This document shows positions 1,301 to 14,773 of a stretch of 32,000 bases of DNA, one piece after another; the first letter of the stretch is position 1, and each line of letters starts with the position of its first letter. The notes under the pieces are model-generated. The model ran no database searches. It saw nothing but the letters and a program-made list of their open reading frames with translations, and was not told where the DNA came from. The stretch spans positions 1,410,001 to 1,442,000 of the forward strand of contig NC_014833.1 of assembly GCF_000179635.2 (NCBI RefSeq), in the 5' to 3' direction. Source of the stretch: Ruminococcus albus 7 = DSM 20455. GTDB taxonomy: Bacteria > Bacillota > Clostridia > Oscillospirales > Ruminococcaceae. The translations under genes and the position numbers were made by a program.

Positions 1301-2104
1301 TTGGAGAATAATAAGATCACCCTTTACGGCTTCAATAATCTTACCAAGACCCTCAGTTTTAATATCTACGATGTTTGCTACGCTAAAGGTCAGAAAGAAC
1401 AAAAGGATTATATCGAGTATATCGACGAGCAGTATAACTCCGAACGTCTTACCAAAATACTCTGCGACGTTACCGAGATGATCGGTGCCCGCGTGCTTAA
1501 TATTTCCAAACAGGATTATGAACCCCAGGGCGCTTCCGTGAATGTCCTCATAGCCGAAAAGGAGCTGGATAAGGATTCTATCGACCCCTCCTGCAATCTG
1601 GGCATTCTACCCGATACTCCCGAGATGATACACGCTCATCTGGATAAGAGTCATGTGACCGTGCACACCTTCCCCGAGTATCACCCCGATAACTCTATCT
1701 CCACTTTCCGCGTGGATATAGACGTATCTACCTGCGGTACTATATCTCCCCTTAATGCCCTGAATTATCTGATAGCCAGCTTCGATTCCGATATCATCAC
1801 CATCGACTACCGCGTTCGCGGATTCACCCGTGATGTGCTGGGCAAGAAGTTCTTCATCGACCACGATATCACTTCCATTCAGGATTATATCGATAAATCT
1901 ACCCTTACCAAGTATGATGCCATCGATGTCAATGTATATCAGTCAAATATTTTTCACACCAAGCTGCTGATAAAGGAGATCGACCTCCAGAACTACCTGT
2001 TCAAAAAGGACGTATACGAGCTTACCCCGAAACAGCGTCTTGATATCACCGACAGCCTCCGCCGCGAGATGATAGAGATATACAGCGGAATGAACATTTA
2101 TTAA
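1301..2104 (+). CDS. speD: S-adenosylmethionine decarboxylase proenzyme, E. coli-type (class 1B)
   Basis: Near-collinear with E. coli SpeD as I recall it: [46 protein letters not shown] (self-processing K|S site), [40 protein letters not shown] start at 1301, with AAAGGA about 12 nt upstream. Confidence 0.95.
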
Positions 2105-2112
2105 GTTGTCAC

Positions 2113-2149
2113 CAAGCCCCTTCCCCGAAAAACGGGTCAAAGGGGCTTG
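2113..2149 (+). terminator. Extended hairpin between speD and speA. It may be a partial terminator or attenuator.
   Basis: CAAGCCCCTT (2113-2122) pairs with AAGGGGCTTG (2140-2149), and an inner CCCG/CGGG helix is present. No clear U-tract follows. Confidence 0.4.
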
Positions 2150-2274
2150 ATATGCATATCCTCTTCAAAACCGCAATAGAAGATATGTCCCGAAAAGAAT
2201 TTTTGTAGTACTGTTTTTTGTACATTTTGAATATCACATTTTTCGCAGAGTCAAGTGCTTTGCGTTAAAGAGGA

Positions 2275-3729
2275 GTGAGCATTTTGAGCTTAGACCAGAC
2301 AAAAGCGCCGCTTTACGAGGCACTGAAAAAACACATGAAAAACCGTATCGTCCGGCTTGACGTGCCGGGGCACAAGGGCGGACGTATGAATAAAGAACTT
2401 AAAGCCTTTCTGGGAGACCAGTGTATGGCTTGCGATGTCAATTCCATGAAAAATCTGGATAACCTCTGCCACCCCGTTTCGGTCATAAAGGAATCCGAAC
2501 AGCTGGCGGCGGACGCTTTCGGGGCTGACCACGCTTTCTTTATGGTGGGTGGAACTACCTCCGCAGTGCAGACCATGGTATTCACTGCCTGCAAGGCGGG
2601 GGAAAAGATAATCATGCCGAGAAACGTCCACAGGAGCGCCATAAACGCCCTTGTTGTATGCGGTGCTGTGCCTGTCTACGTTGATCCCGGCACCAACAAG
2701 CGTCTGGGCATACCCCTCGGTATGTCGGTAAGCGCAGTTGAAAAGGCTATACGCGAGAACCCCGACGCCAAGGCGGTGCTGGTGAACAATCCCACCTACT
2801 ACGGCATATGCTCCGATATCCGCGCGATAGTCAAGCTTGCCCACGAACACGGTATGCTGGTACTTGCGGACGAAGCCCACGGCACCCACCTCTATTTCGG
2901 TGAGGGTCTGCCATGTTCTGCAATGGCGGCAGGGGCTGATATGGCGGCGGTCAGTATACACAAAACAGGCGGCAGCCTTACCCAGTCTTCACTTCTGCTG
3001 TGCAAAAACACGGTATCCGAGGGCTATGTCCGCCAGATAATCAACCTGACCCAGACAACCAGCGGTTCATATCTGCTGATGGTCAGCCTTGATATCGCAA
3101 GAAAGAACCTCGCCATGAACGGCAAGGAACTTTTCGCAAAGGCAGTGGCTTATTCGGACTACGCCCGCGAGGAGATAAACAAGATAGGCGGCTACTATGC
3201 CTACGGCAAGGAACTTGAAAACGGCGATGATTTCTACGCCTTCGATTCCACCAAGCTGAGCGTTCACACCCGTGATATCGGGCTTGCGGGAGTTGAGGTA
3301 TATGATATCCTCCGTGATGACTACGATATCCAGATAGAATTCGGCGATATCGGCAATATCCTCGCCATAGTATCCGCGGGAGACAGAGAGCTTGAAATAG
3401 AGCGTTTCATATCCTCACTCAGCGAGATAAAGCGCCTTTATTCAAAAGACCCCACAGGTCTTTTTGACCACGAGTATATCGACCCGCAGGTGGAAATGAC
3501 CCCGCAGAAAGCCTTTTACAGCGACAAGCGTGCAATGTGGATAAATGAGAGCGAAGGTCAGATATGCGGAGAATTCGTAATGTGCTATCCCCCCGGAATA
3601 CCCATACTTGCCCCCGGCGAGCGCATAACAAAAGAGATAATCAGTTACATAAACTACTGCAAGGAAAAGGGATGCCTGCTGACAGGTACCGAAGACCTTG
3701 AGATAAACTATATAAATGTGGTAGAATAA
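2275..3729 (+). CDS. speA: PLP-dependent arginine decarboxylase (Orn/Lys/Arg decarboxylase family, Bacillus SpeA type)
   Basis: Strong resemblance to B. subtilis SpeA: PLY..LKKH, D.PGHK.G, FGADH.FF.V.G.T.A...M, IIMPRNVH.S, NPTYYG, ADEAHG.H, SIHKTGGSLTQSS (PLP lysine), EFVM.YPPGIPI..PGE. The true start may be TTG at 2284, 9 nt after AAAGAGGAG, rather than GTG at 2275. Confidence 0.9.
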   Translation: MSILSLDQTKAPLYEALKKHMKNRIVRLDVPGHKGGRMNKELKAFLGDQCMACDVNSMKNLDNLCHPVSVIKESEQLAADAFGADHAFFMVGGTTSAVQTMVFTACKAGEKIIMPRNVHRSAINALVVCGAVPVYVDPGTNKRLGIPLGMSVSAVEKAIRENPDAKAVLVNNPTYYGICSDIRAIVKLAHEHGMLVLADEAHGTHLYFGEGLPCSAMAAGADMAAVSIHKTGGSLTQSSLLLCKNTVSEGYVRQIINLTQTTSGSYLLMVSLDIARKNLAMNGKELFAKAVAYSDYAREEINKIGGYYAYGKELENGDDFYAFDSTKLSVHTRDIGLAGVEVYDILRDDYDIQIEFGDIGNILAIVSAGDRELEIERFISSLSEIKRLYSKDPTGLFDHEYIDPQVEMTPQKAFYSDKRAMWINESEGQICGEFVMCYPPGIPILAPGERITKEIISYINYCKEKGCLLTGTEDLEINYINVVE

Positions 3730-3742
3730 CAAGGGTAATAAT

Positions 3743-4258
3743 ATGGACAACAAAACAACTAAAAAACGGCTGGGCTGTATAATAATCTTTGCGGTCATAG
3801 CTGTCGGACTTGCGGTGATGGTCATATTTGCTCCCGATATAGCGAATTTTCTGCTTATGAAACAGTCTTTTCAGGAGTACACATCTTTCGGAAATAAAGA
3901 GATAAAGATGATACGCGATGATATGGGCGTGACTGTTGAGGGCAGTACAACTCCTGTTAAGCTGACGGTCAGCCATGCTGCGGGGGACTATTGCTATCAG
4001 CTTTGGTTAAAAGATATCGATGGTGCCGAAAAGTTTATGGAAGAATGCTTTGACGGCACATACTCTGCCGCTGAGATAACTGACCAATATAATATGTGTG
4101 TTTATGATTACGAGGACTATAAATTGGACAGTTCGTGTGCTTCGTACAGCTGTGAGTTTGTAAACAGCAAGGGTGTTAAAAGGTTCGATGAATATTACAT
4201 AGTGTTTTACAAAGAAGACGAGAGTTTTAAAGCAAAGCTATTTGCAAGAAAAACATAA
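3743..4258 (+). CDS. Hypothetical protein with an N-terminal membrane anchor
   Basis: ATG follows AAGGG 13 nt after the speA stop. The N-terminal hydrophobic segment is LGCIIIFAVIAVGLAVMVIF. I do not recognise a family. Confidence 0.6.
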   Translation: MDNKTTKKRLGCIIIFAVIAVGLAVMVIFAPDIANFLLMKQSFQEYTSFGNKEIKMIRDDMGVTVEGSTTPVKLTVSHAAGDYCYQLWLKDIDGAEKFMEECFDGTYSAAEITDQYNMCVYDYEDYKLDSSCASYSCEFVNSKGVKRFDEYYIVFYKEDESFKAKLFARKT

Positions 4259-4280
4259 CAGACACAAAGAGGGTAATAAT

Positions 4281-4532
4281 ATGGACAACAGACAAGATCT
4301 TAAAAACCCCAACGAGATAAAGCAGCCCCTTAGCAGTAACAATATACAGGGCTTTCAGGGCAACGGGGCATTCTATCAGGAACTTGCACCCACAAAGCAA
4401 AAGCGTGGTCTGCGTATAAACGCAAGTATATCGGGCAAGACCTTCGGCAGACTGGTGCTGGGCTTTGTGGCGGCTTCTGCCATCGGGCTGATAGCGGCTG
4501 TAATAGTGATACTCAGATTTATCTTCGGGTGA
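4281..4532 (+). CDS. Hypothetical small protein with a C-terminal membrane anchor
   Basis: I prefer the internal ATG at 4281 (MDNRQDLK...) because the same 21-nt RBS/start block precedes it as at 3743. The C-terminal TM is LVLGFVAASAIGLIAAVIVIL. Confidence 0.5.
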   Translation: MDNRQDLKNPNEIKQPLSSNNIQGFQGNGAFYQELAPTKQKRGLRINASISGKTFGRLVLGFVAASAIGLIAAVIVILRFIFG

Positions 4533-4536
4533 AGCC

Positions 4537-4971
4537 ATGGCTGAATTTATCATACGTGAAGTACGCCCCGAAGATGCCGATGATATCGCAGAGATAAGCC
4601 GCGAAGACCTGGGATATCCCTGTGATGCGGAGATGGTAAGAGCGAATATATCGGGGCTTGACAGTTCCCGTGAATCTGTTTTCGTTGCCGAGACGGACAG
4701 CAGTGCCGTGGGATATATCCATGTGGAAGAGTACAAAACTTTGTACTTTGAAAAGATGGTGAACTATCTCGGGGTGGCTGTAAGCGGCAAATACAGACGT
4801 CTGGGAATAGGTTCGGCGCTGATAAAAGCGGCGGAAAATTGGGCTGTGGAGCGCGGTATACATCTTGTCCGCCTGAATTCGGGCAGTACCCGCACAGGAG
4901 CTCACGAGTTCTACAAGCGGCAGGGCTACATCAGCGACAAGATGCAGGTACACTTCACCAAGAGATTATGA
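4537..4971 (+). CDS. GNAT-family N-acetyltransferase
   Basis: 144 aa with the acetyl-CoA binding motif LGVAVSGKYRRLGIGSALIKAAE and the C-terminal A.EFYKRQGY, both typical of GNAT enzymes. The substrate cannot be read from the sequence. Confidence 0.85.
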   Translation: MAEFIIREVRPEDADDIAEISREDLGYPCDAEMVRANISGLDSSRESVFVAETDSSAVGYIHVEEYKTLYFEKMVNYLGVAVSGKYRRLGIGSALIKAAENWAVERGIHLVRLNSGSTRTGAHEFYKRQGYISDKMQVHFTKRL

Positions 4972-5001
4972 GTACATAAAACAGGGCAGGAATGAATTTG
5001 A

Positions 5002-5619
5002 ATGATAGAGGACTTTGACGAAAAAAGATTCTCAAAAAAATTAAATACAGGCTGTTTCACTACGCTGATAATATTTGGCGGGCTGATACTTATCGGTTTG
5101 GGTTACCTGATATATACTGCAATACACTACGCAAGAATCACCAATATCAAGTGGGACAGTTTTGATAAGGAACGCATAGCAAGGATCGAGATATTTCTCG
5201 ATATGACCATGCCCGATGATGTCAAACCTGTATGGTTCAGACGGGAGTCAGGTGCGGGGGACAGCTATTCGAGGCTGATAGTCGAAAATATTAGTGACCC
5301 GCAGGATTTTCTGGGTAAAGCATTTCCCGATTCCGAGATAACAGAGTACACCACCGATGAGGAAGATATCACGAAAAATGAGGTATCCTCACCCGGCAAT
5401 GAAAAGAAAAACGAACTGCAAAGAATCAGCCCCGATAGTGAATTGTTCAGCAGTTTCAAAGACGACCTGAACTTTGCAATCAAGGAAAAGGGCTACAGCA
5501 TTGAATTCACCGAGATATATGACCGCGTATTCGCCGATAGAATCAAGGGTATGTATGACATCGGCTTTGGCAAAACAGACAGCGGATACTGCGCTGTGAT
5601 AAGGTTTTTGACATATTAA
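5002..5619 (+). CDS. Hypothetical protein with an N-terminal membrane anchor
   Basis: One TM (CFTTLIIFGGLILIGLGYLIY) followed by an acidic soluble domain. It sits inside the operon with short gaps to its neighbours. I do not recognise a family. Confidence 0.6.
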   Translation: MIEDFDEKRFSKKLNTGCFTTLIIFGGLILIGLGYLIYTAIHYARITNIKWDSFDKERIARIEIFLDMTMPDDVKPVWFRRESGAGDSYSRLIVENISDPQDFLGKAFPDSEITEYTTDEEDITKNEVSSPGNEKKNELQRISPDSELFSSFKDDLNFAIKEKGYSIEFTEIYDRVFADRIKGMYDIGFGKTDSGYCAVIRFLTY

Positions 5620-5641
5620 AATATAGAAGAGAGGGAACACC

Positions 5642-6490
5642 ATGGATCTTTGGTTTACTGAAAAGCATACGGACGATGTTAATTTTACAATAAAAGTAAA
5701 GAAACAGCTTTACTCGGGCAAAAGCTATTATCAGGAGATAGATGTATTCGACACCTACGAATTCGGGCGGGTGCTGGTGCTGGACGGCTTCATCATGCTG
5801 ACCGAAAAGGACGAGTATATCTACCATGAGATGGTAACAGCCGTGCCTATGGCTGTCAATCCCGATATCAAGAATGTGCTGGTCATCGGTGCGGGTGACG
5901 GCGGAACTGTCCGCGAGCTGACCCGCTATGAATCCATCGAAAATATCGATATGGTGGAGATAGATGAACAGGTGGTGGAAGTCTGCAAGGAGTATCTCCC
6001 ACAGACAGCCTGCAAGTTCGATGACCCGAGAGTACACCTGTTTTTTGAGGACGGTCTTAAATACGTCCGCAGAAAAAGCAGTGAATACGACCTTATCATC
6101 GTGGATTCCACCGACCCATTCGGTCCGGGAGAGGGACTTTTCACCAAGGAATTCTACGGCAACTGCTTCAAGGCACTGACGGACAGCGGCATACTGATAA
6201 ATCAGCATGAAAGCACCTACTACGACAGCTACGTGGATATGGTGACAAGGACGCACAAGCGCATCGGCGCAAGCTTCCCCGTATCCATGGTGTATCAGGC
6301 GCATATACCCACCTATCCCTCGGGACACTGGCTTTTCGGCTTTGCCTCGAAGAACCTGCACCCCGTATACGACCTTAAAGCCGACCGCTGGAAAGAGTTC
6401 GGCATAAAGACAAGGTACTACAACACCGACCTCCACAAGGGCTGTTTCGCACTGCCCAATGATGTGCTGGAGATACTGGAGAATTCGTAA
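5642..6490 (+). CDS. speE: Spermidine synthase (polyamine aminopropyltransferase)
   Basis: LWFTE, QEIDVFDT..FGRVLVLDG, TEKDE.IYHEM, VLVIGAGDGGTVRE, VEID..VV, DLIIVDSTDP.GP...LFT.EFY are classical SpeE motifs. Confidence 0.95.
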   Translation: MDLWFTEKHTDDVNFTIKVKKQLYSGKSYYQEIDVFDTYEFGRVLVLDGFIMLTEKDEYIYHEMVTAVPMAVNPDIKNVLVIGAGDGGTVRELTRYESIENIDMVEIDEQVVEVCKEYLPQTACKFDDPRVHLFFEDGLKYVRRKSSEYDLIIVDSTDPFGPGEGLFTKEFYGNCFKALTDSGILINQHESTYYDSYVDMVTRTHKRIGASFPVSMVYQAHIPTYPSGHWLFGFASKNLHPVYDLKADRWKEFGIKTRYYNTDLHKGCFALPNDVLEILENS

Positions 6491-6505
6491 CAACTGGAGG
6501 TTACT

Positions 6506-6799
6506 ATGAAAAACATATCGTTGAAGAGAAGTTCAATTATATTCAATCTGATCGAAGGCGTTATTGCGGTTATCGCATTAACAATAAGCTATGCTTTTAT
6601 TTTCGAGAAAAATAATCAAGACCATGACATTGGATTAGGTTTGTTTATTTCATTTGTATGGATGTTAGTTTTACTGATACCGAATATTTTTTACAAATTA
6701 ATTGGAAAATTCCATATAAAAGATACTTTGTATTTTCAATTAGCTCCACTTGTTTTAGGTTCCGGAATATATATTATATTTCAATTAGTTCTGTATTGA
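6506..6799 (+). CDS. Hypothetical small polytopic membrane protein
   Basis: 97 aa with about three hydrophobic segments. It lies in a visibly AT-rich stretch, 15 nt after the speE stop. Confidence 0.5.
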   Translation: MKNISLKRSSIIFNLIEGVIAVIALTISYAFIFEKNNQDHDIGLGLFISFVWMLVLLIPNIFYKLIGKFHIKDTLYFQLAPLVLGSGIYIIFQLVLY

Positions 6800-6884
6800 T
6801 TACTGACCTATCTTGGGAACACTTTTATAAAAGCAGGAGATAATGTAGAATTCGTGATTGCTGGTACTCAGGTGGTGATATAAT

Positions 6885-7391
6885 GTGAAAATCGTTATCC
6901 GTATCGTGATCGCTTGCTATATTGTTATCCTAACGGTCTTTCAAGGACTATATATTTATTACGGCGGAAAACCTACGCTTTTCTGGCTGTCGGTGTTATT
7001 GGAAATACTCTCTGTTCTATCATTGCTTGGATCTGGAGCGGGGATCAGTCATTTTCTTTCAGTAAGAGAAATTGTTAAAAATGGGATAAGCACCAAAGCA
7101 GTAATAAAAGATCATCACGTTGAATGGAGTAAAATGAAAAATTATTATCCGATCATTCAGTTTCTTGATACCTCAAAGATCTCACATAAATATCAAAGCA
7201 AGGTCGGAATGACTATACTGCTCAGAAAATACAGAAAAGGCTCCAAAGTTAAAATATCATATCTCGAAAACGAACCGTGGGAATTCGTTATTGTTCCTGC
7301 ATACTATTATCAATCGATAATAGAGATGATAATGTTTACGTTTTTGGGGCTCCCGGCTGTGATCGGCTCTTTCATTTTAGTGAAGTGCTAG
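6885..7391 (+). CDS. Membrane protein, DUF3592-like
   Basis: N-terminal and C-terminal TMs flank a beta-rich core (GISTKAVIKDHHVEW....YYPIIQF....KGSKVKISYLENEP). This matches my recollection of the DUF3592 pattern. GTG start after GGTGGTGA. Confidence 0.55.
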   Translation: MKIVIRIVIACYIVILTVFQGLYIYYGGKPTLFWLSVLLEILSVLSLLGSGAGISHFLSVREIVKNGISTKAVIKDHHVEWSKMKNYYPIIQFLDTSKISHKYQSKVGMTILLRKYRKGSKVKISYLENEPWEFVIVPAYYYQSIIEMIMFTFLGLPAVIGSFILVKC

Positions 7392-7465
7392 ATACGACCT
7401 ATATTGTGAACCCTTTTATAAAGCAAGTTTTAAACACCAACGTCTATACCGAAAGGAGAATAATA

Positions 7466-8320
7466 ATGTTAGAGAAAAATGTACAGACTTTCATCGCCTG
7501 CGACTGCGAGTACGATGAAGCAAAGATAGTAATGTTCGGCGCACCCTTTGACAGCACCACTTCATTCCGCCCGGGAACGAGGTTTGCAAGCCAGGCGATG
7601 AGGAGCGAGAGTTTTGGCATCGAGACTTTCTCGGTATATCAGATGAAGGATATGCTGGATATAAAGGTATTCGACAGCGGCGACCTTGAACTGCCTTTCG
7701 GTTCTCCCGAAAGAGCGCTGGACGATATCAAGAAAAGGACTGCCACTATCCTTGGTGACGGCAAGATACCCTGCATGATAGGCGGCGAACATCTTGTTAC
7801 CCTTGGGGCAGTAAGAGCCTGTGCCGAGAAATATCCCGACCTGCACGTTATACAGTTCGATGCCCATGCCGACCTCCGCGAGGATTATCTGGGCGTTAAG
7901 CTTTCTCACGCCTGCGTTATGCGCCGCTGTCAGGAGATACTGGGCGACGGAAAAATATTTCAGTTCGGTATACGCAGTGCCGATAAGAGCGAAGTTGAAT
8001 TCGTTATGCAGGAGCATACCTCCCTCAACCTTTTCGACTTCCGCACTCTCCGCGAAGTAGCGGGCTATCTCGGCAACGCACCTGTATATTTCACCCTTGA
8101 TATGGACGTTCTCGACCCCTCGGAATTCCCCGGCACAGGCACTCCCGAAGCCGGCGGCGTGCATTTCGATGAACTGCTTGACGCTATCGAAGTCCTTTCC
8201 GAGCTGAATATTGTGGGCTTTGATATGAACGAGCTTTCCCCTGCCTATGACCCAAGCGGCAGAAGCACAGCCCTCGCCTGCAAGACTATGAGGGAGATGC
8301 TGTTGAGATTTCACAGGTAA
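7466..8320 (+). CDS. speB: Agmatinase (ureohydrolase family)
   Basis: ATG at 7466 follows AAAGGAGA. The listed upstream extension from 7277 overlaps the previous gene and has no homology-like content. Motifs: GAPFD...S.RPG.RF, IGGEH..T, FDAHADLR, LD.DVLDP...PGTGTPE.GG (Mn-binding His/Asp set). Confidence 0.93.
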   Translation: MLEKNVQTFIACDCEYDEAKIVMFGAPFDSTTSFRPGTRFASQAMRSESFGIETFSVYQMKDMLDIKVFDSGDLELPFGSPERALDDIKKRTATILGDGKIPCMIGGEHLVTLGAVRACAEKYPDLHVIQFDAHADLREDYLGVKLSHACVMRRCQEILGDGKIFQFGIRSADKSEVEFVMQEHTSLNLFDFRTLREVAGYLGNAPVYFTLDMDVLDPSEFPGTGTPEAGGVHFDELLDAIEVLSELNIVGFDMNELSPAYDPSGRSTALACKTMREMLLRFHR

Positions 8321-8372
8321 TATTTTCCTGCTTTCACTTTAGAACACCACTTGACCGTCGGTATACTCGGGT

Positions 8373-8407
8373 GTCATCTTCCCCCGCCGCAGGCGGGGGA
8401 AGATGAC
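8373..8407 (+). terminator. GC-rich 16-bp hairpin after the polyamine operon
   Basis: GTCATCTTCCCCCGCC pairs with GGCGGGGGAAGATGAC around a 3-nt loop. There is no U-tract on either strand, so its role as an intrinsic terminator is uncertain. Confidence 0.45.
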
Positions 8408-8470
8408 CAACAGCTATCCGCGGGATAACAAATCGCAACCGACCGTTGCGCCATTGCCTTTGCGTGACGG

Positions 8471-8499
8471 TTGACAGCGGGTGCTGTCTGTGTTATCAT
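8471..8499 (+). promoter_or_regulatory. SigA-type promoter
   Basis: TTGACA (8471-8476), 17-nt spacer, TATCAT (8494-8499), with an extended -10 TGt. Confidence 0.55.
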
Positions 8500-8536
8500 G
8501 GGTTTAAGGTCAGTACGGCAAAACTTTGGAGGGTGT

Positions 8537-8941
8537 ATGGAATTTGAAAAAAAGCCCGAAACAAGCTTCCTTGTCAGGGACGAGGCAGAGAAAGTAAGCA
8601 GGGATAAGGGCATACCACCCGAGAGGTTATCAGAGTTCGCAAAATCGGGCTGGAAGGACATCATCACAAAATTCTGCTATACATTCCTGGATATGAAAAA
8701 ACAGCGCGGAAGCAGCCTTGCTTACAGCTGGCTGAATTTCAGGGAAGGACTTGCCCACAGTGAGCCCGTGAGATGTGGGGCTGACGAATTCGCCTATTTT
8801 GCGCAGGTACGTGAGCTTATCCTCGCAGAGGACAGGGACAAAAAGCTGTTCCTGATACTTTCACAGGGCTGGGTCTATGAGGGCTATGCCGCGGAGATAT
8901 TCTCGCTTCTGCCCGAGCTTTTCTATCTTGAAGATGCTTAA
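8537..8941 (+). CDS. Hypothetical cytoplasmic protein, possibly truncated by an in-frame TAA (see findings)
   Basis: ATG at 8537 follows GGAGGG and lies downstream of the 8471 promoter. The listed 8471 start would sit inside the promoter. The same frame stays open for a further 26 codons after the TAA at 8939-8941. Confidence 0.55.
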   Translation: MEFEKKPETSFLVRDEAEKVSRDKGIPPERLSEFAKSGWKDIITKFCYTFLDMKKQRGSSLAYSWLNFREGLAHSEPVRCGADEFAYFAQVRELILAEDRDKKLFLILSQGWVYEGYAAEIFSLLPELFYLEDA

Positions 8942-9063
8942 ATACTTTCGCCTAAATTCAGGTGGGTGATATGCCACTGCGATGACGGCGAATGTGCTGT
9001 GTTTTCTGCCGTTAAGAACTAACCGAAGGCAGCACCGCGAAACCATATTATAGCAGGTCTTCC

Positions 9064-9205
9064 TTTTGTGAAGACTGCACATGAAACGCTCCGTATAATT
9101 GTTGATGATAACACCAAAAATCTCTGCCGCCGAAACGTATATATGATATAAGCGGCAAGGTGCTTCAGAACAGGTGAAAAAATTATTACGGAGGTTACAG
9201 CTATG
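9064..9205 (+). promoter_or_regulatory. Copy A of a duplicated, conserved ~140-nt leader. It is a candidate cis-regulatory RNA with an anti-SD/SD helix.
   Basis: It shares these blocks with copy B: TTTTGTGAA, AACGCTCCGTATA, CTGCCG..GAAACGTATAT, GCGGCA and ATTACGGAGG. CTCCGTATAAT (9089-9099) can pair with ATTATTACGGAG (9182-9193). Confidence 0.35.
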
Positions 9206-9250
9206 ATATGTTTGCGCGGTATTGCCCTATCTTACTAACGGGGTGATATT

Positions 9251-9922
9251 ATGGACAGAAAACTCATGATAAGCGCAGTGACAAAATTTCTTGCAGGGCT
9301 TGTAATGCTTGCTCTGCTGATATTCCTGCCTGCGGGGACGCTTGCTTTCACACAGGGCTGGATATTTATGGCAGTGCTTTTTCTGCCGATGCTGATGATA
9401 GGCATCGTGCTGGCGCTGAAAAGTCCCGAACTGCTGAGAAAGCGCCTTAACAGCAAGGAACAGGAAAACACCTAGAAAGGCGTGGTCATATCAAGTCTGC
9501 TGATGTTCCTTGCGGGCTTCATCACGGCGGGGCTGAGTTTCCGCTTCGGGTGGCTGAGACTTCCAATGTGGGTCAGCGTTACTGCGGCGGTGGTATTCCT
9601 CATCGGCTACGCCATGTACGCCGAGGTACTCCGCGAGAATGAATACCTCTCCCGCACGGTGGAGGTACAGGAGAAACAGAAAGTCATCGACACGGGGCTT
9701 TACGGCGTTATACGCCACCCCATGTACACCGCCACCATTCTTATGTTCTGCTTTGCACCGCTTGTACTTGGTTCGGTGATATCCTTTGTGATATTCCTTG
9801 CCTACCCTGTTATAATAGTAACAAGGATAGGCAACAAGGAAAAAGTCCTGGAAAACGGACTCAAAGGCTATATCGACTATAAGAAGAAAGTAAAGTACAG
9901 GCTGATGCCTTTTGTGTGGTAG
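9251..9922 (+). pseudogene. ICMT/PEMT-family membrane methyltransferase interrupted by an in-frame TAG at 9473-9475
   Basis: The two listed ORFs (9251-9475 and 9482-9922) are in the same frame and are separated only by TAG. Joined, they give a ~220-aa polytopic protein carrying VIDTGLYGVIRHPMY and a C-terminal YRL.PFVW, typical of isoprenylcysteine carboxyl / phospholipid methyltransferase-like proteins. Confidence 0.7.
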
Positions 9923-9970
9923 ATATCTGCGGTCAGAAGCTTTCTCCGCTGTATTTTTACCAACGAAATG

Positions 9971-10110
9971 TTTTGTGAAAAACATACATCCAACGCTCCG
10001 TATATTTATGTAAAATCACGCCATAAAAAGGCGCCTGCCGAAACGTATATTAAATGTACGCGGCAGATGTCCGCAGAAGTGATAAAACTATTACGGAGGA
10101 ACCAATTATG
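9971..10110 (+). promoter_or_regulatory. Copy B of the duplicated leader
   Basis: By eye it is about two-thirds identical to copy A over ~140 nt, with the same conserved blocks in the same order and nearly the same spacing (AACGCT to GGAGG is 105 nt in A and 103 nt in B). Its GGAGG directly serves the ATG at 10108. Confidence 0.35.
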
Positions 10111-11097
10111 AAAACAAACAGGAAAATCCCGTCAGTGACTTCAATTTTAGATAAGATAGAAGTCCTGATGATAATATTAGCAATAGCAGGGATAATTTAT
10201 TTTACTCATTCGTTATTCGCTTTGATAATCGGCATAGCAGGGTTAATTCTCTTCAGATACGTGAATTTATTTTCACAGACAAGTGAAAATGATATGCGGA
10301 CAGGCTATGAAAAAAAATCCGGAAAAATCAAAGCAATAATGCCTGTTTTGAAAAAGATATGGGTTGTGATGATACCGTTAAGCATATTATGCTTAGCTTA
10401 TGTTTCTAAGTCATTTCATAGGATTCCGCATTTTGACAGAACACAATTGGAAATAGAATACAGCGATGTGCCCGAAGGAACTGCATATGTAGACGTTCTC
10501 GTTAAGATAGACAGCAGTGATGAAAATTACACCGATTTCAATGTTATTCCCCAAAAGCTCATAAGCAAGGGAATTGACAACGAAGGTAGCTCGGTGTTCA
10601 ATTCTGAACCTATAGATATAAATAAAAACAGTGAAATAGCTAAGTATGACGATGACGGCTATAAGTCACTTTCTCTACATTCAACATATGTGAAAGATTT
10701 TGACGTAGTTAAGCCATACGGATATGAACATGATGATATGATGCTGAAATGCTCTGCTGAAAAACTGTATAAACAGTACGGAAAGTTCAGGCTTGCTTAT
10801 GTAGGCAAAAACGGCGAAGTTCTCGGCGTAACGAAGAAAACGTCCCACACCTATGATATTGATGAACCTTATAAAGTTATCGCTGATGGCGACAAGGCGA
10901 CGTACAGTACATGGGGTAACTCACCTTTGTTTTATGTGGCTGTGTACATCATTCGCATCACGTTCTATGTAACGATCATCATTATTGCAGTGGCGATCAT
11001 TAATCATAGCGCTGAAAAGATCAGCTGGGATAGCTGGGTTCGGGAACAGACCCGAAAAGACCGCGACAACAATGGCGAAAGTGGTAGAAATCTATGA
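10108..11097 (+). CDS. Hypothetical membrane protein (N-terminal TM pair plus a further TM, a soluble middle domain, and a C-terminal TM)
   Basis: ATG at 10108 lies 8 nt after GGAGG. The listed start at 10054 falls inside the conserved leader. The region is AT-richer than its flanks. I do not recognise a family. Confidence 0.6.
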   Translation: MKTNRKIPSVTSILDKIEVLMIILAIAGIIYFTHSLFALIIGIAGLILFRYVNLFSQTSENDMRTGYEKKSGKIKAIMPVLKKIWVVMIPLSILCLAYVSKSFHRIPHFDRTQLEIEYSDVPEGTAYVDVLVKIDSSDENYTDFNVIPQKLISKGIDNEGSSVFNSEPIDINKNSEIAKYDDDGYKSLSLHSTYVKDFDVVKPYGYEHDDMMLKCSAEKLYKQYGKFRLAYVGKNGEVLGVTKKTSHTYDIDEPYKVIADGDKATYSTWGNSPLFYVAVYIIRITFYVTIIIIAVAIINHSAEKISWDSWVREQTRKDRDNNGESGRNL

Positions 11098-11756
11098 ACA
11101 AGGAATGGTCCGATCTTAACAAGGCTATGCAGCAGCTGCTGAAAAAGCGAGATACTTTCAATGAGGGCATCGCCGCACTTTTCAGACTGCGTGACGAGCT
11201 TTATAATACAATGCTTTCTCTGCGGGAAGAACTTTCACGCGGGGACTTTGATGCCATGCCGTACCCAAAGGCTAAGGGCTATCATTGCAAGAACATCGCC
11301 TACTCACTGTGGCATATTTTCCGCATTGAGGATATTACGGCGAATACCCTTATCGCTGACAGGGAACAGGTGTTTTTCACAGGTGACTATCAGCGCCGTA
11401 TCAACTCGCCTATCATCACCACAGGCAACGAACTTTCGGGCGACGAGATAGCCGGTTTCACGAAAGTGCTGGATATCGGAGCGCTTTACGAATACACCAG
11501 TGATGTAAAGCAAAGCACCGAGGATACCCTATTGGGTATGGATTACGATAAGCTGAAAACAAAGATACCCACAGAACGCCGTGAAAAGCTTATATCCCTT
11601 GAAGTCGTCAGCCGAAGCGAAGACGCATTCTGGCTGGTGGACTACTGGTGCGGCAAGGATATCCGTGGGCTGATACAGATGCCCTTTTCCCGCCACCACA
11701 TAATGCACACCGAAGCTATGCTGAGGATAAGGGACGGTCTGCCGCGGCGGACTTGA
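11094..11756 (+). CDS. Hypothetical protein, possibly DinB-like (helical bundle with a His-rich putative metal site)
   Basis: The ATGA overlap with the upstream gene indicates translational coupling. SLWHIFRIEDI and the C-terminal FSRHHIMHTEAM resemble DinB-superfamily His motifs, but this assignment is weak. Confidence 0.45.
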   Translation: MNKEWSDLNKAMQQLLKKRDTFNEGIAALFRLRDELYNTMLSLREELSRGDFDAMPYPKAKGYHCKNIAYSLWHIFRIEDITANTLIADREQVFFTGDYQRRINSPIITTGNELSGDEIAGFTKVLDIGALYEYTSDVKQSTEDTLLGMDYDKLKTKIPTERREKLISLEVVSRSEDAFWLVDYWCGKDIRGLIQMPFSRHHIMHTEAMLRIRDGLPRRT

Positions 11757-11822
11757 TATGATAATACGCGGATATTCTCCGCTTTACCCAAATAAATTAT
11801 TAAACCGAAAGGAAGATGTAAA

Positions 11823-13025
11823 ATGTCAAGAGCTTTGATAATAGGTGCAGGAGGAGTAGCAGGTGTTGTTATACACAAGTGCTGCCAGAACAGCGAGGTG
11901 TTCACAGATATCTGTATCGCCAGCCGTACAAAGGCTAAGTGCGATAAGTTCAAGGAGGAGCTTCAGGGCAAGACCAAGACCAACATCACCACCGCACAGG
12001 TAAACGCTGATAACGTTCCCGAGCTGGTTGCGCTGATGAAGGAGTACAAGCCCGATATCTGTATCAACGTGGCTCTGCCCTATCAGGATCTTCATATCAT
12101 GGACGCTTGTCTTGAATGCAAGGTTGACTACCTTGATACCGCAAACTACGAGCCCGAGGATACTGCTAAGTTTGAATACAGCTGGCAGTGGGCTTACCGC
12201 GAGAGATTCGAGAAAGCAGGCATCACCGCTGTGCTGGGTTCGGGCTTCGACCCCGGCGTTACAGGCGTATTCTGCGCTTATGCCCAGAAGCACTACTTCG
12301 ATGAGATAAACTACATCGATATCCTCGACTGCAACGGCGGCGACCACGGCTATCCTTTTGCGACCAACTTCAACCCCGAGATCAATATCCGTGAGGTAAG
12401 CGCAAAGGGCAGCTACATTCAGGACGGCAATTGGGTAGAGACCGAGCCTATGGAGATCAAGAGAGTATACAACTTCGATCAGGTTGGCGAAAAGGATATG
12501 TACCTGCTCCACCACGAAGAGCTTGAATCCCTGGCACTGAATATCAAGGGCATCAAGAGGATACGTTTCTTCATGACCTTTGGTCAGAGCTACCTGACAC
12601 ACCTGAAATGTCTGGAAAATGTTGGTATGACCTCCATCGAGCCTATCATGTACGAGGGCAAGGAGATAGTACCTCTCCAGTTCCTGAAAGCAGTTCTCCC
12701 CGACCCTGCAAGCCTTGGCCCCAGAACAAAGGGCAAGACCAATATAGGCTGTATCTTCCAGGGCAAGAAGGACGGCAAGGACAAGACCTACTATGTATAC
12801 AACGTATGCGACCATCAGGAGTGCTACAAGGAAGTCGGCTCACAGGCTATATCCTACACCACAGGAGTACCCGCTATGATAGGCGCTATGATGGTGCTGA
12901 CAGGCAAGTGGAAGAAACCCGGCGTATACAACGTCGAGGAATTCGATCCCGATCCTTTCATGGAAGCACTGAACAAGTGGGGTCTGCCCTGGACAGAGAA
13001 TTTCAATCCTGTACTGGTAGATTAA
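11823..13025 (+). CDS. Carboxynorspermidine/carboxyspermidine dehydrogenase-like (saccharopine dehydrogenase family)
   Basis: 400 aa with an N-terminal Rossmann motif IIGAGGVAGVV. It carries DICINVALPYQD, DYLDTANYEP, GFDPGVT, NFNPEIN and a C-terminal EF.PDPF...L..WGLPW, consistent with CANSDH/CASDH as I recall it. Confidence 0.8.
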   Translation: MSRALIIGAGGVAGVVIHKCCQNSEVFTDICIASRTKAKCDKFKEELQGKTKTNITTAQVNADNVPELVALMKEYKPDICINVALPYQDLHIMDACLECKVDYLDTANYEPEDTAKFEYSWQWAYRERFEKAGITAVLGSGFDPGVTGVFCAYAQKHYFDEINYIDILDCNGGDHGYPFATNFNPEINIREVSAKGSYIQDGNWVETEPMEIKRVYNFDQVGEKDMYLLHHEELESLALNIKGIKRIRFFMTFGQSYLTHLKCLENVGMTSIEPIMYEGKEIVPLQFLKAVLPDPASLGPRTKGKTNIGCIFQGKKDGKDKTYYVYNVCDHQECYKEVGSQAISYTTGVPAMIGAMMVLTGKWKKPGVYNVEEFDPDPFMEALNKWGLPWTENFNPVLVD

Positions 13026-13155
13026 TTCATAACACTAAAAGCGAATCGTTAGTGTGTTCATTAATTGTTGACATTCGCTTATACGCCGCTGTGGACGGTC
13101 ATTCCAGCGCACGTAAAGACGCAGCTGAGTATCTCTTTAGCGGCGTGTTAAGGGA

Positions 13156-13488
13156 ATGCTATATGGTTTCAAAACTATGATTTTTTTTGAGAGACATTTT
13201 CCTATATTATGCGAGCTGTTTGAGTCGGACTCGGTGGTATTTCTTATCATCGGGGCGATGTTTGGATTCCTGTTTGGTTTCAAACTAACAAACCGCAAAA
13301 GCAGGATACGCGCTGTGATCTCATGTGTGGCGGTATACGCGGTATGTGAGGGTATAGGCAACATCCCTATGCGTGTAAACTTTTTGCTGGATTTTATTTT
13401 GCTGATCGTAGGCACAGCTGCACTTGGGGCTGTTTTGGGGATACTGCTGAATATGCCTGTTTACGGTTTTTTTGCTGAAAAAGAATAA
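13156..13488 (+). CDS. Hypothetical small membrane protein (about 3 TM)
   Basis: The sequence is hydrophobic throughout, and AAGGGA lies upstream of the ATG. I do not recognise a family. Confidence 0.5.
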   Translation: MLYGFKTMIFFERHFPILCELFESDSVVFLIIGAMFGFLFGFKLTNRKSRIRAVISCVAVYAVCEGIGNIPMRVNFLLDFILLIVGTAALGAVLGILLNMPVYGFFAEKE

Positions 13489-13532
13489 AGATATCGTGCG
13501 GCAGCATGATAGGTATAAGGGAGGTCAGAAAG

Positions 13533-14138
13533 ATGACTTTGTGCGAACTTGAAAGACAGCAGGAGATACGTTTCCCGCAGGCTTTCCACAGGATATACGA
13601 CAGCGGTGCCATGAAGTGGCTGGAGCTTAGTCGGGCGGAGCTGAAAGCAAGTATCAAGGAGTATGTCAGTGATACCACAGCATTTCTCATGCTGGACTGC
13701 GACTGCGAGATGTACCTTTTTGAGGAAGTACAGTCGGCGGCAGAGGAACTTGCACAGCTTTCACAGTGGCAGGAGGAGGACAAAAAGCTCCGTATAAAGG
13801 ACGGACTTCGGATAGTGCCTTTTGGTCACAGCGGCGGCGGGGACATCTACTGCCTGCTGTATACTCCCGATAATGCAGAGCCTATGGTGATAAGGTACTT
13901 TCACGACAGCTACGAAGCACCTCAGATCATGGGGCGTGACTTTGACGAGTTCATGTACATACAGCTTCTTCTGGCGGCGGAAAACGAGCAGGATGTTGAG
14001 GACGAGTATTTCCGCAATAATACTGCGTATCTCAGTGAGAAGTACCGTGATCTTACAGAAGGGAAGTCCGCAGATGAGCTGACAGATGCACTGTCTGAGA
14101 TCAATTTCGCTCCCGCGGACATATTTGAACGAATATGA
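13533..14138 (+). CDS. SMI1/KNR4 (SUKH-1) family protein
   Basis: ATG at 13533 lies 8 nt after AAGGGAGG. FPQAFHRIYDSG, IVPFGHSGGGDIYCLLY and GRDFDEFMY match the SUKH-1 pattern (ligand-binding or immunity-type fold). Confidence 0.7.
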   Translation: MTLCELERQQEIRFPQAFHRIYDSGAMKWLELSRAELKASIKEYVSDTTAFLMLDCDCEMYLFEEVQSAAEELAQLSQWQEEDKKLRIKDGLRIVPFGHSGGGDIYCLLYTPDNAEPMVIRYFHDSYEAPQIMGRDFDEFMYIQLLLAAENEQDVEDEYFRNNTAYLSEKYRDLTEGKSADELTDALSEINFAPADIFERI

Positions 14139-14773
14139 CTATAGTGCAGAAAAAAGACCTTGCAAACAAGGTTATAGAACGGCTTGAAGAACAGTACCCC
14201 GATGCGATATGTTCGCTGGAATATGCACAGCCCCATGAACTGCTGATAGCTACCAGACTTTCGGCACAGTGTACAGATGCGCGGGTGAACATCGTGACTA
14301 AGGAGCTGTTTGCGAAGTTCCATTCAATCAACGAATTTGCCGATGCGGATATAGCTGAAATTGAGGAGATAGTGAAGCCCTGCGGACTTTACAAGACTAA
14401 AGCGAAGTCCATAAAAGAGATGTGCATACAGCTTCGGGACGAGTACGGCGGAGTACTTCCCGACACCCTGGAGGGGCTTACGAAACTCAGCGGCATAGGG
14501 CGCAAGACGGCGAACCTCATAATGGGGGACATATACCACAAGCCTGCGGTGGTAACGGACACCCACTGCATACGCATAACTGGCAGACTGGGACTTGTGA
14601 AGAACAAGGAGCCTGCAAAAGTTGAGGCGGAGCTTTGGAAGATACTTCCCCCGGAGAAGAGCAGTGACCTGTGCCACAGGCTGGTGCTTTTCGGCAGGGA
14701 GTATTGCACGGCAAGAAGCCCGAAATGCGGCGGCTGTCCGCTGAATGACATTTGTATTTCAAAAACTGAATAG
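14135..14773 (+). CDS. nth: Endonuclease III (DNA glycosylase / AP lyase)
   Basis: It has a helix-hairpin-helix L.GIGRKTANL, TD.H..R...RLG, and a C-terminal 4Fe-4S cluster C.....P.C..C.....C. The ATGA overlap couples it to the upstream gene. Confidence 0.95.
   Translation: MTIVQKKDLANKVIERLEEQYPDAICSLEYAQPHELLIATRLSAQCTDARVNIVTKELFAKFHSINEFADADIAEIEEIVKPCGLYKTKAKSIKEMCIQLRDEYGGVLPDTLEGLTKLSGIGRKTANLIMGDIYHKPAVVTDTHCIRITGRLGLVKNKEPAKVEAELWKILPPEKSSDLCHRLVLFGREYCTARSPKCGGCPLNDICISKTE

Follow-up and report, generated by a model that had tools for sequence, protein, structure and literature searches.

In riboswitches and RNA thermometers that sequester the Shine-Dalgarno sequence (SD), such as SAM-II/V, preQ1, ROSE and fourU, a closing helix holds the SD and initiation is blocked by default. 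The ermC and cat leaders work by translational attenuation or coupling through a leader peptide, and the mRNAs of the type I toxins hok, tisB and aapA1 rely on long-range pairing between their 5' part and an SD. Here we describe a cassette of about 145 nt that resembles each of these in some respects. Two copies, A and B, lie in a 32,000-nt stretch of Ruminococcus albus 7 (NC_014833.1, positions 1,410,001 to 1,442,000, forward strand; the whole stretch is referred to as the window, and coordinates are those of the window). They belong to a new sequence family of a familiar cis-regulatory leader type, which is confined to one rumen species group. The function that we tentatively favour, as quite possible rather than probable, is a portable default-off translational leader, which in copy A would gate a short leader open reading frame (ORF) coupled to the next gene. 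The features of the two copies, including the proposed helix P1 between an upstream anti-SD block and the SD, are as follows.

9064-9207, + strand: core module of copy A, from TTTTGTGAA to GGAGG-N8-ATGA (covariance-model score 127 bits)
9067-9081, + strand: imperfect palindrome TGTGA-N5-GCACA of copy A, 5' of P1, for which RNAalifold draws a 4-bp hairpin
9085-9100, + strand: block 1 of copy A, AACGCTCCGTATAATT, the anti-SD (P1 5' strand, 9089-9100), with a perfect TATAAT at 9094-9099
9130-9155, + strand: inner hairpin of copy A (CCG / AAA bulge / CGTATAT / 3-nt loop / ATATAAG / CGG)
9181-9194, + strand: block 3 of copy A, AATTATTACGGAGG, the P1 3' strand with a bulged T, ending in the SD GGAGG (9190-9194)
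9203-9238, + strand: leader ORF of copy A, 11 codons from ATG to TAA, MICLRGIALSY
9218-9249, + strand: predicted hairpin P4 of copy A, leader codons 6-9 GGTATTGCCCT (9218-9228) with the SD region of the ICMT-like gene, GGGGTGATAT (9240-9249), present in both the minimum free energy and the centroid structure
9251-9922, + strand: gene for a membrane methyltransferase of the ICMT/PEMT family, with its own SD and an in-frame TAG at 9473-9475
9971-10111, + strand: core module of copy B (covariance-model score 109 bits)
9992-10007, + strand: block 1 of copy B, AACGCTCCGTATATTT, the anti-SD (P1 5' strand, 9996-10004)
10030-10072, + strand: long imperfect hairpin of copy B, GGCGCCTGCCG / AAA / CGTATAT-TAA-ATGTACG / CGGCAGATGTCC, which includes the common inner hairpin
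10089-10099, + strand: block 3 of copy B, TATTACGGAGG, the P1 3' strand and SD of Rumal_1232
10108-11097, + strand: gene for a 329-aa membrane protein, identical in product to Rumal_1232, whose start codon is the ATG of copy B

Aligned with MAFFT, A and B are 66.9% identical over a core of 145 columns, with one 1-nt and one 3-nt gap, in agreement with the nearly gapless alignment and two-thirds identity that an earlier note on this DNA had judged by eye. They are also the longest direct repeats that a repeat search finds in the window (D1, D7). The blocks TTTTGTGAA, AACGCTCCGTATA, GCCGAAACGTATAT, GCGGCA and TATTACGGAGG are found in both copies in the same order, every block of the earlier list being in its place, and the coding sequences downstream (an ICMT-like gene and a hypervariable membrane protein) are indeed unrelated. 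Strains KH2T6 and AR67 and one metagenome contig have a third paralogue, C, which lies 5' of an ACT-domain gene and is 73.8% identical to A and 72.9% to B. In the rest of the 32-kb window, a scan with the filters off using the covariance model (sequence-only, built from the first seven sequences) gave no further match above 9 bits. Block-1-like words at 13786 and 26525 lie within coding sequence and were dismissed as chance occurrences.

Conservation among the three paralogues is concentrated in blocks. Identical columns number 88 of 145 and are clustered (the three longest runs measure 13, 13 and 10, a sum with p=0.0005 in 20,000 shuffles), and outside the retained blocks the paralogues diverge, to 67-74% pairwise identity overall. 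The palindrome of A has the counterparts TGTGA-N5-ATACA in B and TGTGC-N5-TCACA in C. A protein-coding element was considered and rejected, as six-frame translation runs into stops in B, and block 2 is in different frames in A and C, so the element is not protein-coding. An integron attC-like site was also set aside on inspection: RYYYAAC fits B and C, but its GTTRRRY partner is missing.

Each cassette ends in a complete initiation region, GGAG(G) followed by an 8-nt spacer and ATGA, which is kept in all three paralogues despite their differing downstream ORFs. Blocks 1 and 3 are among the most conserved parts of the cassette and are complementary to each other over at least 7+2 bp, the SD included. 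On the mRNA, CUCCGUAUA can pair with UA(U)UACGGAG, and this helix, P1, can be drawn in every copy, with 97.5% of its alignment cells paired across 9 distinct sequences. The CTCCGTA/TACGGAG complementarity is not readily obtained by chance: a shuffled block 1 attains a 7-bp run with p=0.004, and any complementary 7-mer arises in the shuffled 120-nt upstream part with p=0.025. In partition-function folding, the GGAG-CUCC block pairs with a probability of 0.96-1.0 in A, B and the B orthologue of contig L008 (related contigs compared with the window are numbered L001-L069). The computed P1 duplex energies are -10 to -13 kcal/mol (-13.1 kcal/mol for copy A). The L008 orthologue carries three substitutions in P1 (CTCTGTAAA, AATTACGGAG), one C-to-U change that gives a G.U pair and two U-to-A changes, and still makes a helix of 8 bp, its register slightly shifted; the overall fold z-score is -4.4. 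Fold z-scores for B, C and the L008 orthologue of B range from -2.2 to -4.4. The claim that a conserved leader ends in an initiation region whose SD an upstream block can bury thus holds at the level of complementarity, and P1 dominates the predicted ensembles of A and B. We consider the SD-sequestering helix real as conserved complementarity and plausible as an RNA structure.

Within P1, all copies share a bulged hairpin (CCG / AAA bulge / CGUAUAU / 3-nt loop / AURURNG / CGG). Its 5' strand is invariant across copies. On the 3' strand, the changes in columns 87 and 89 replace a purine by a purine opposite U, and column 90 (A or C opposite G) is paired in the B copies only. The third loop position (9145 in A) is G, A or C among A strains that are otherwise about 97% identical, and T in copy C. 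In B the hairpin is extended to about 21 bp; at one C.A mismatch, L008 and L069 have U in place of C and so form a U-A pair. This variation fits an RNA constraint on the + strand, though it is no proof of one. The common three-helix fold of the earlier note stands only for P1. Its P2 was described as a shared CAC/GTG core with compensatory ends and its P3 as shared, but A and B use different alignment columns for both helices, so that the term compensatory was used loosely. Copy C cannot form P3 at all, because its 5' strand there reads ATCTCC and is unable to pair with GCGGCA. P3 cells are paired at 74% and 72% in its two registers, and P2 shows a single double change, in one register only; with three independent lineages, shuffle and slide controls did not separate structure by covariation.

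If P1 forms on the mRNA, it would hide the SD and enclose the conserved bulged hairpin, leaving the initiation region off by default. For copy B, the gated region would be the start of the membrane-protein gene. For copy A, where the earlier note had placed the leader in front of the ICMT-like gene, the leader is there but does not abut that gene: the 11-codon ORF comes first, and its stop sits 12 nt before the ATG at 9251. The 3' half of this ORF is predicted to pair with the SD of the ICMT-like gene (GGUAUUGCCCU with GGGGUGAUAU), a predicted layout that is that of translational coupling via a leader ORF. Ribosomes let onto the leader ORF would open this second hairpin and so couple its translation to that of the ICMT-like gene. 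We infer that something opens the P1 fold in the cell, which may be a protein, a small RNA, a small molecule or upstream events. The leader ORF of A is retained in other strains, where one change is synonymous, two replace an amino acid and the stop goes from TAA to TAG. The homology of A and C runs past the core through this ORF to the next SD; LRGIALSY* and FHGVAVYY* align codon by codon, with third positions accounting for 6 of 10 differences. The homologous ORF of C stops at codon 3 and its hairpin is ambiguous, and B has no leader ORF.

The arrangement of copy A recalls the ermC and cat leaders in having a very short ORF just upstream of a gene with whose SD its 3' part pairs. It differs from them in that the SD of the A leader ORF is itself sequestered, that B lacks a leader ORF and C has an interrupted one, and that the regulated gene is not a resistance gene. 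With type I toxin mRNAs, the cassettes share a 5' block that pairs with a distant SD to give an inert mRNA, as well as their nature as small intergenic modules with several paralogues and a patchy occurrence among strains. In contrast to those toxins, whose hydrophobic peptide must be about 19 aa or longer to span a membrane, the leader peptide has 11 residues, too few for a membrane toxin, and what B drives is a protein of 329 aa. For a type I toxin-antitoxin arrangement, neither an antisense RNA gene nor a conserved minus-strand promoter was identified, only A having a site with 9/12 matches. This minus-strand site (9045-9072, TTCACA-16-TAATAT, 9/12) has as its -35 the conserved TGTGAA block of A, read as the reverse complement, and B and C offer no good -10 equivalent.

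Copies A and B lie within a same-strand polyamine gene array (window 1301-14770). A sigma-70-type promoter-like site precedes the DUF6756 gene about 590 nt upstream of A:

8471-8499, + strand: TTGACA-17-TATCAT with TG, 11/12 matches

This site would place copy A within an mRNA. No convincing terminator was found on the way from it to A, or in the interval from the ICMT stop to B; a candidate intrinsic terminator just upstream of B (hairpin 9929-9950) was rejected as weak (-8.8 kcal/mol, z=-0.6) and is not kept in L008 and L069. Copy C follows a 119-aa membrane-protein gene and precedes the ACT-domain gene, in an array that includes phenylacetate-CoA-ligase-like (AMP-binding) and pyruvate/indolepyruvate:ferredoxin-oxidoreductase-family genes. 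Given a same-strand upstream gene, the lack of a convincing terminator and a promoter upstream of A, the copies should be transcribed whole in longer mRNAs, and this should hold for all three whether or not they also contain a promoter. As no terminator is present, any control would be translational. Nothing relevant on transcription starts or riboswitches in R. albus was found in the literature. In contig L063 (2896-2975), a remnant of the 119-aa membrane-protein gene has its start and end fused into a short ORF, the gene being largely deleted.

The family is made up of three paralogous loci and is confined to a single species group (R. albus and two sister species). A pattern of blocks 1 and 2 searched in 185,579 species genomes (one each) gave two true matches, both copy C (KH2T6 and AR67), and one chance match, while a pattern of blocks 1, 2 and 3 searched in 241 million metagenome records gave two A orthologues, one C and one chance match. 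Two pattern scans of viral contigs returned 42 matches to the loose pattern, none of which the model recognised, and 0 to the second pattern, and BLAST against plasmid and phage sets returned no copy. At gathering thresholds, Rfam 15 gave no match anywhere in the window, and with the cut-off relaxed to E<=10, positions 8900-10300 gave just three chance miRNA/snoRNA matches on the minus strand inside the ICMT gene; the classes that the earlier note could not match (SAM, c-di-GMP, guanidine, fluoride, ZTP, preQ1 and Mn) were included. The search for further copies that it had recommended therefore added one locus, C, and orthologues of A, B and C. Walking along orthologues of the membrane, ICMT and ACT proteins yielded near-identical copies or element-free loci only, which is why no deeper alignment for covariation could be assembled.

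Genomes hold at most two copies, and R. albus 7 is the only one seen with both A and B. Each copy may be present or absent in contigs that match the window at 96-98% identity in their flanks, and A and B segregate independently, as follows.

Copy A present, as near-identical orthologues: L004, L005, L009-L012, L055-L058
Copy A absent: L008 and L069, with unrelated sequence instead; also L059-62, and orthologous loci with 84% or 74% ICMT protein identity
Copy B present: the window, L008, L069
Copy B absent: the other contigs, with a gap of at most 47 nt between the ICMT and membrane genes
Copy C present: L001, L002, L007
Copy C absent: loci with 87-88% ACT protein identity

The element is likewise missing at ICMT and ACT orthologues that are more distant, and the locus of the 74%-identical ICMT orthologue has a plain TTGACT-17-TATAAT promoter in the position of A. 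In some strains and in a related species, A is replaced by an unrelated allele upstream of the ICMT gene that ends in TTGCCCTGTCAATAATTATGAATTATGCATTATGAAT (L008 293-680, L059 3762-4000, L069 1-33). In L012, L057 and L058, a 144-nt repeat with CTATCC...GGATAG ends is inserted in A between GGTGAAAA and the P1 3' strand. This repeat has A-run flanks and a long GC-rich hairpin (L012 2058-2201; L057 and L058 3059-3201), and partial copies occur elsewhere, including in L061 and L062, which points to behaviour like that of a miniature inverted-repeat transposable element (MITE).

A number of observations weigh against the translational-leader reading. P1 shows no double compensatory change: six of its nine pairs are invariant and one varies from C to U opposite G, although with only three independent lineages covariation has no statistical power. 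The predicted fold of copy A is no more stable than that of shuffled sequence (z=-0.6), P2 and P3 do not extend to copy C, and about 25 conserved nt (TTGTG..YACAT..AACG) lie 5' of P1, outside the proposed fold. In C, the SD is predicted to pair not with block 1 but with a lineage-specific CUCCG that lies closer to it, and the leader ORF carries TGA at codon 3 where A has TGT; with its start codons in a predicted 10-bp helix (AAUCACAUCA with UGAUGUGAUU), copy C looks locked or decaying. A is missing from L008, L059-62 and L069 and B from most strains, so each downstream gene can do without its copy. The A copies with the 144-nt insertion show no evident decay in their remainder. Finally, block 1 holds a perfect or 5/6 -10 hexamer (TATAAT or TATATT) in all copies.

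This last point bears on a reading that we regard as unlikely, in which the blocks act as DNA, a portable promoter/operator whose transcripts start downstream of block 1 so that P1 never forms. Block 1 would then be a -10 element (TATAAT/TATATT, or CGTATA for a sigma factor of the extracytoplasmic function (ECF) type), TGTGA-N5-TCACA a regulator site, and the three CGTA(T/A)A-like blocks, two forward and one inverted over the SD, operators. For a sigma-70 promoter, however, no paralogue has a -35 candidate 16-19 nt away from the shared -10 that matches at more than 3/6 positions, and a consensus promoter scan found no + strand site inside either copy. In favour of the ECF variant, the three paralogues have CGTATA 17 nt after TGAAGA, TGAAAA or TGCAAT, and TGAARA-N17-CGTATA resembles the Bacillus subtilis sigma-W consensus (TGAAAC-N16-CGTATA). 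But the AAC of that -35 is missing (GAAGA, GAAAA, GCAAT), L008 has TGTAAA for CGTATA, and the downstream blocks, the SD among them, are left unaccounted for. The conserved imperfect palindrome and AACG 5' of P1 are not needed by the RNA fold and would suit an operator, yet the spacer is N5 against the N6 of CRP/FNR/Rex-type sites, and cre/CcpA, Rex and CRP-type operators were rejected on inspection for no more than half-site likeness or for wrong spacing. The CGTA(T/A)A core is common to blocks 1, 2 and 3, though inverted operators about 95 bp apart would be unusual. Strains without A have other AT-rich sequence in its place, and the more distant orthologue noted above has its plain promoter there. 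On the other side, the inner-hairpin changes are G.U-compatible on the + strand alone, and the conserved SD-N8-ATGA is a signal for translation rather than one read in the DNA.

It is likewise rather improbable that the copies are hitch-hiking relics which do not themselves regulate anything, either duplicated 5' ends of an ancestral small gene or a short mobile repeat, spread by recombination and slowly decaying. Such relics would explain the presence/absence polymorphism of each copy amid flanks about 97% identical, the independent segregation of A and B, the homology of A and C past the core as in a copied segment, the TGA in the leader ORF of C, the tolerance of A for the 144-nt insertion, and a neighbourhood rich in inserted small genes and other repeats. 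BOX, RUP, Correia and ERIC elements and MITEs are similarly short and non-coding, contain an inverted repeat, sit between operon genes and vary in presence between strains. Against this stand the block-wise rather than uniform conservation, blocks that are intact even in C despite its decayed leader ORF, and the mutual complementarity of these blocks, complete initiation region included. Moreover, the inverted repeat is sub-terminal, lying 25 nt and 13 nt inside the ends of homology, no target-site duplication is visible, and there are 1-2 copies per genome, 67-74% identical block-wise, instead of the many near-identical recent copies of a MITE; plasmid, phage and viral sets held none. A true ligand-binding riboswitch, in which an aptamer enclosed by P1 binds a metabolite or ion and controls access to the SD, appears very unlikely. 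P1 does enclose conserved internal blocks and end in the SD, and the invariant single-stranded GAAAC, GCGGCA and CAGAA could line a pocket. As none of the known classes fits, such a riboswitch would constitute a new class. Known SD-sequestering riboswitches and thermometers differ from the cassette, which has no Rfam match or covariation-supported aptamer, whose conservation reaches 25 nt 5' of the closing helix, and whose pairing spans about 95 nt in contrast to the short local hairpins of thermometers. Its recurrence upstream of functionally coherent genes across taxa was not seen: there are only three loci (block patterns, 185,579 species representatives and 241 million metagenome records), the associated genes (ICMT-like, hypervariable membrane protein, ACT-domain protein) have no evident common function, the inner helices differ between paralogues without covariation, and copies come and go between strains. 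For these reasons the ligand switch suggested in the earlier note lacks its usual support. A further reading that we hold to be highly doubtful is a sensory translational switch of a new class that moves between operons by recombination. In it, the inner hairpin (AAA bulge, CGUAUAU stem), GCGGCA/CAGAA and the bulged U would form the binding site of a small molecule or a dedicated RNA-binding protein, and binding would open the leader-ORF SD and, by coupling, turn on the downstream gene. Polyamines would be one candidate ligand, since A and B lie inside a spermidine/norspermidine operon.

The genes downstream of the copies have features of their own. The codon at 9473-9475 of the ICMT-like gene is TAG in R. 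albus 7 and CAG (Gln) elsewhere (...ENTQKGVV... in three homologous proteins, CAG in the L009 DNA), so the R. albus 7 gene is either a nonsense pseudogene or affected by a sequencing error. Rumal_1232 is hypervariable, with 44-87% amino-acid identity between strains against 96-98% for the flanking DNA. The alleles compared (L004, L005, L009, L011, L055, L057 and L069) have differing N-terminal two-helix modules, and L069 has two tandem paralogues. A copy of about 65-80 nt of the ICMT 3' end is repeated after the membrane-protein gene in L009, L011, L012 and L057. From these sequence comparisons, the Rumal_1232 locus looks like a recombination cassette under diversifying selection. The next gene (11094-11756, 220 aa) had been called DinB-like; its only likeness was E=0.07-0.08 to two PDB chains, one of them named mycothiol-S-transferase, and no Pfam family matched even at E<=5, which does not sustain the name.

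The remaining members of the polyamine array and its surroundings are listed below.

Polyamine genes of the array: AdoMet-decarboxylase-family, Orn/Lys/Arg-decarboxylase and spermidine-synthase
7466-8320: arginase-family (agmatinase-like) gene
11823-13025: saccharopine-dehydrogenase-family gene
Accessory genes between them: GNAT, DUF6756 (8471-8941), ICMT-like, Rumal_1232, the 220-aa protein and a SUKH-family gene (SUKH/SMI1_KNR4)

Several accessory genes have no Pfam match, and the content of the array varies by strain. Short repeats mark some gene starts and junctions (D5 at 3732, 4270 and 9240; D14 at 6805 and 7396). A perfect 15-bp GC-rich stem-loop (TCATCTTCCCCCGCC GCAG GGCGGGGGAAGATGA) lies at 8374-8407 after the agmatinase-like gene and has no U-tail; overlapping it, 8376-8398 is a 23-nt match to the core of the L012 repeat, with the promoter-like site about 60 nt downstream. 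At the left window edge, ORF 239-1021 has recombinase zinc-ribbon and DUF4368 domains, which together make up the C-terminal region of large serine recombinases; this hints that an integrated element may lie close by.

The homology of the three copies, the conservation of their blocks, the complementarity of blocks 1 and 3, their position in same-strand arrays and their presence/absence pattern are matters of direct comparison; that the RNA fold forms in the cell, limits translation and is opened by something is what we propose on that basis. If the copies are instead a promoter fragment or a relic, they would be ordinary, and would mainly be an example of the plasticity of intergenic regions in R. 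albus operons. Should the RNA model hold, R. albus would possess a self-contained, transferable default-off module that is set before different genes in housekeeping operons, and regulatory cassettes, not genes alone, would be shuffled within the pangenome of the species. The cassette would then also be a compact natural part, composed of anti-SD, hairpin, SD and leader ORF, for the control of translation in rumen Clostridia.

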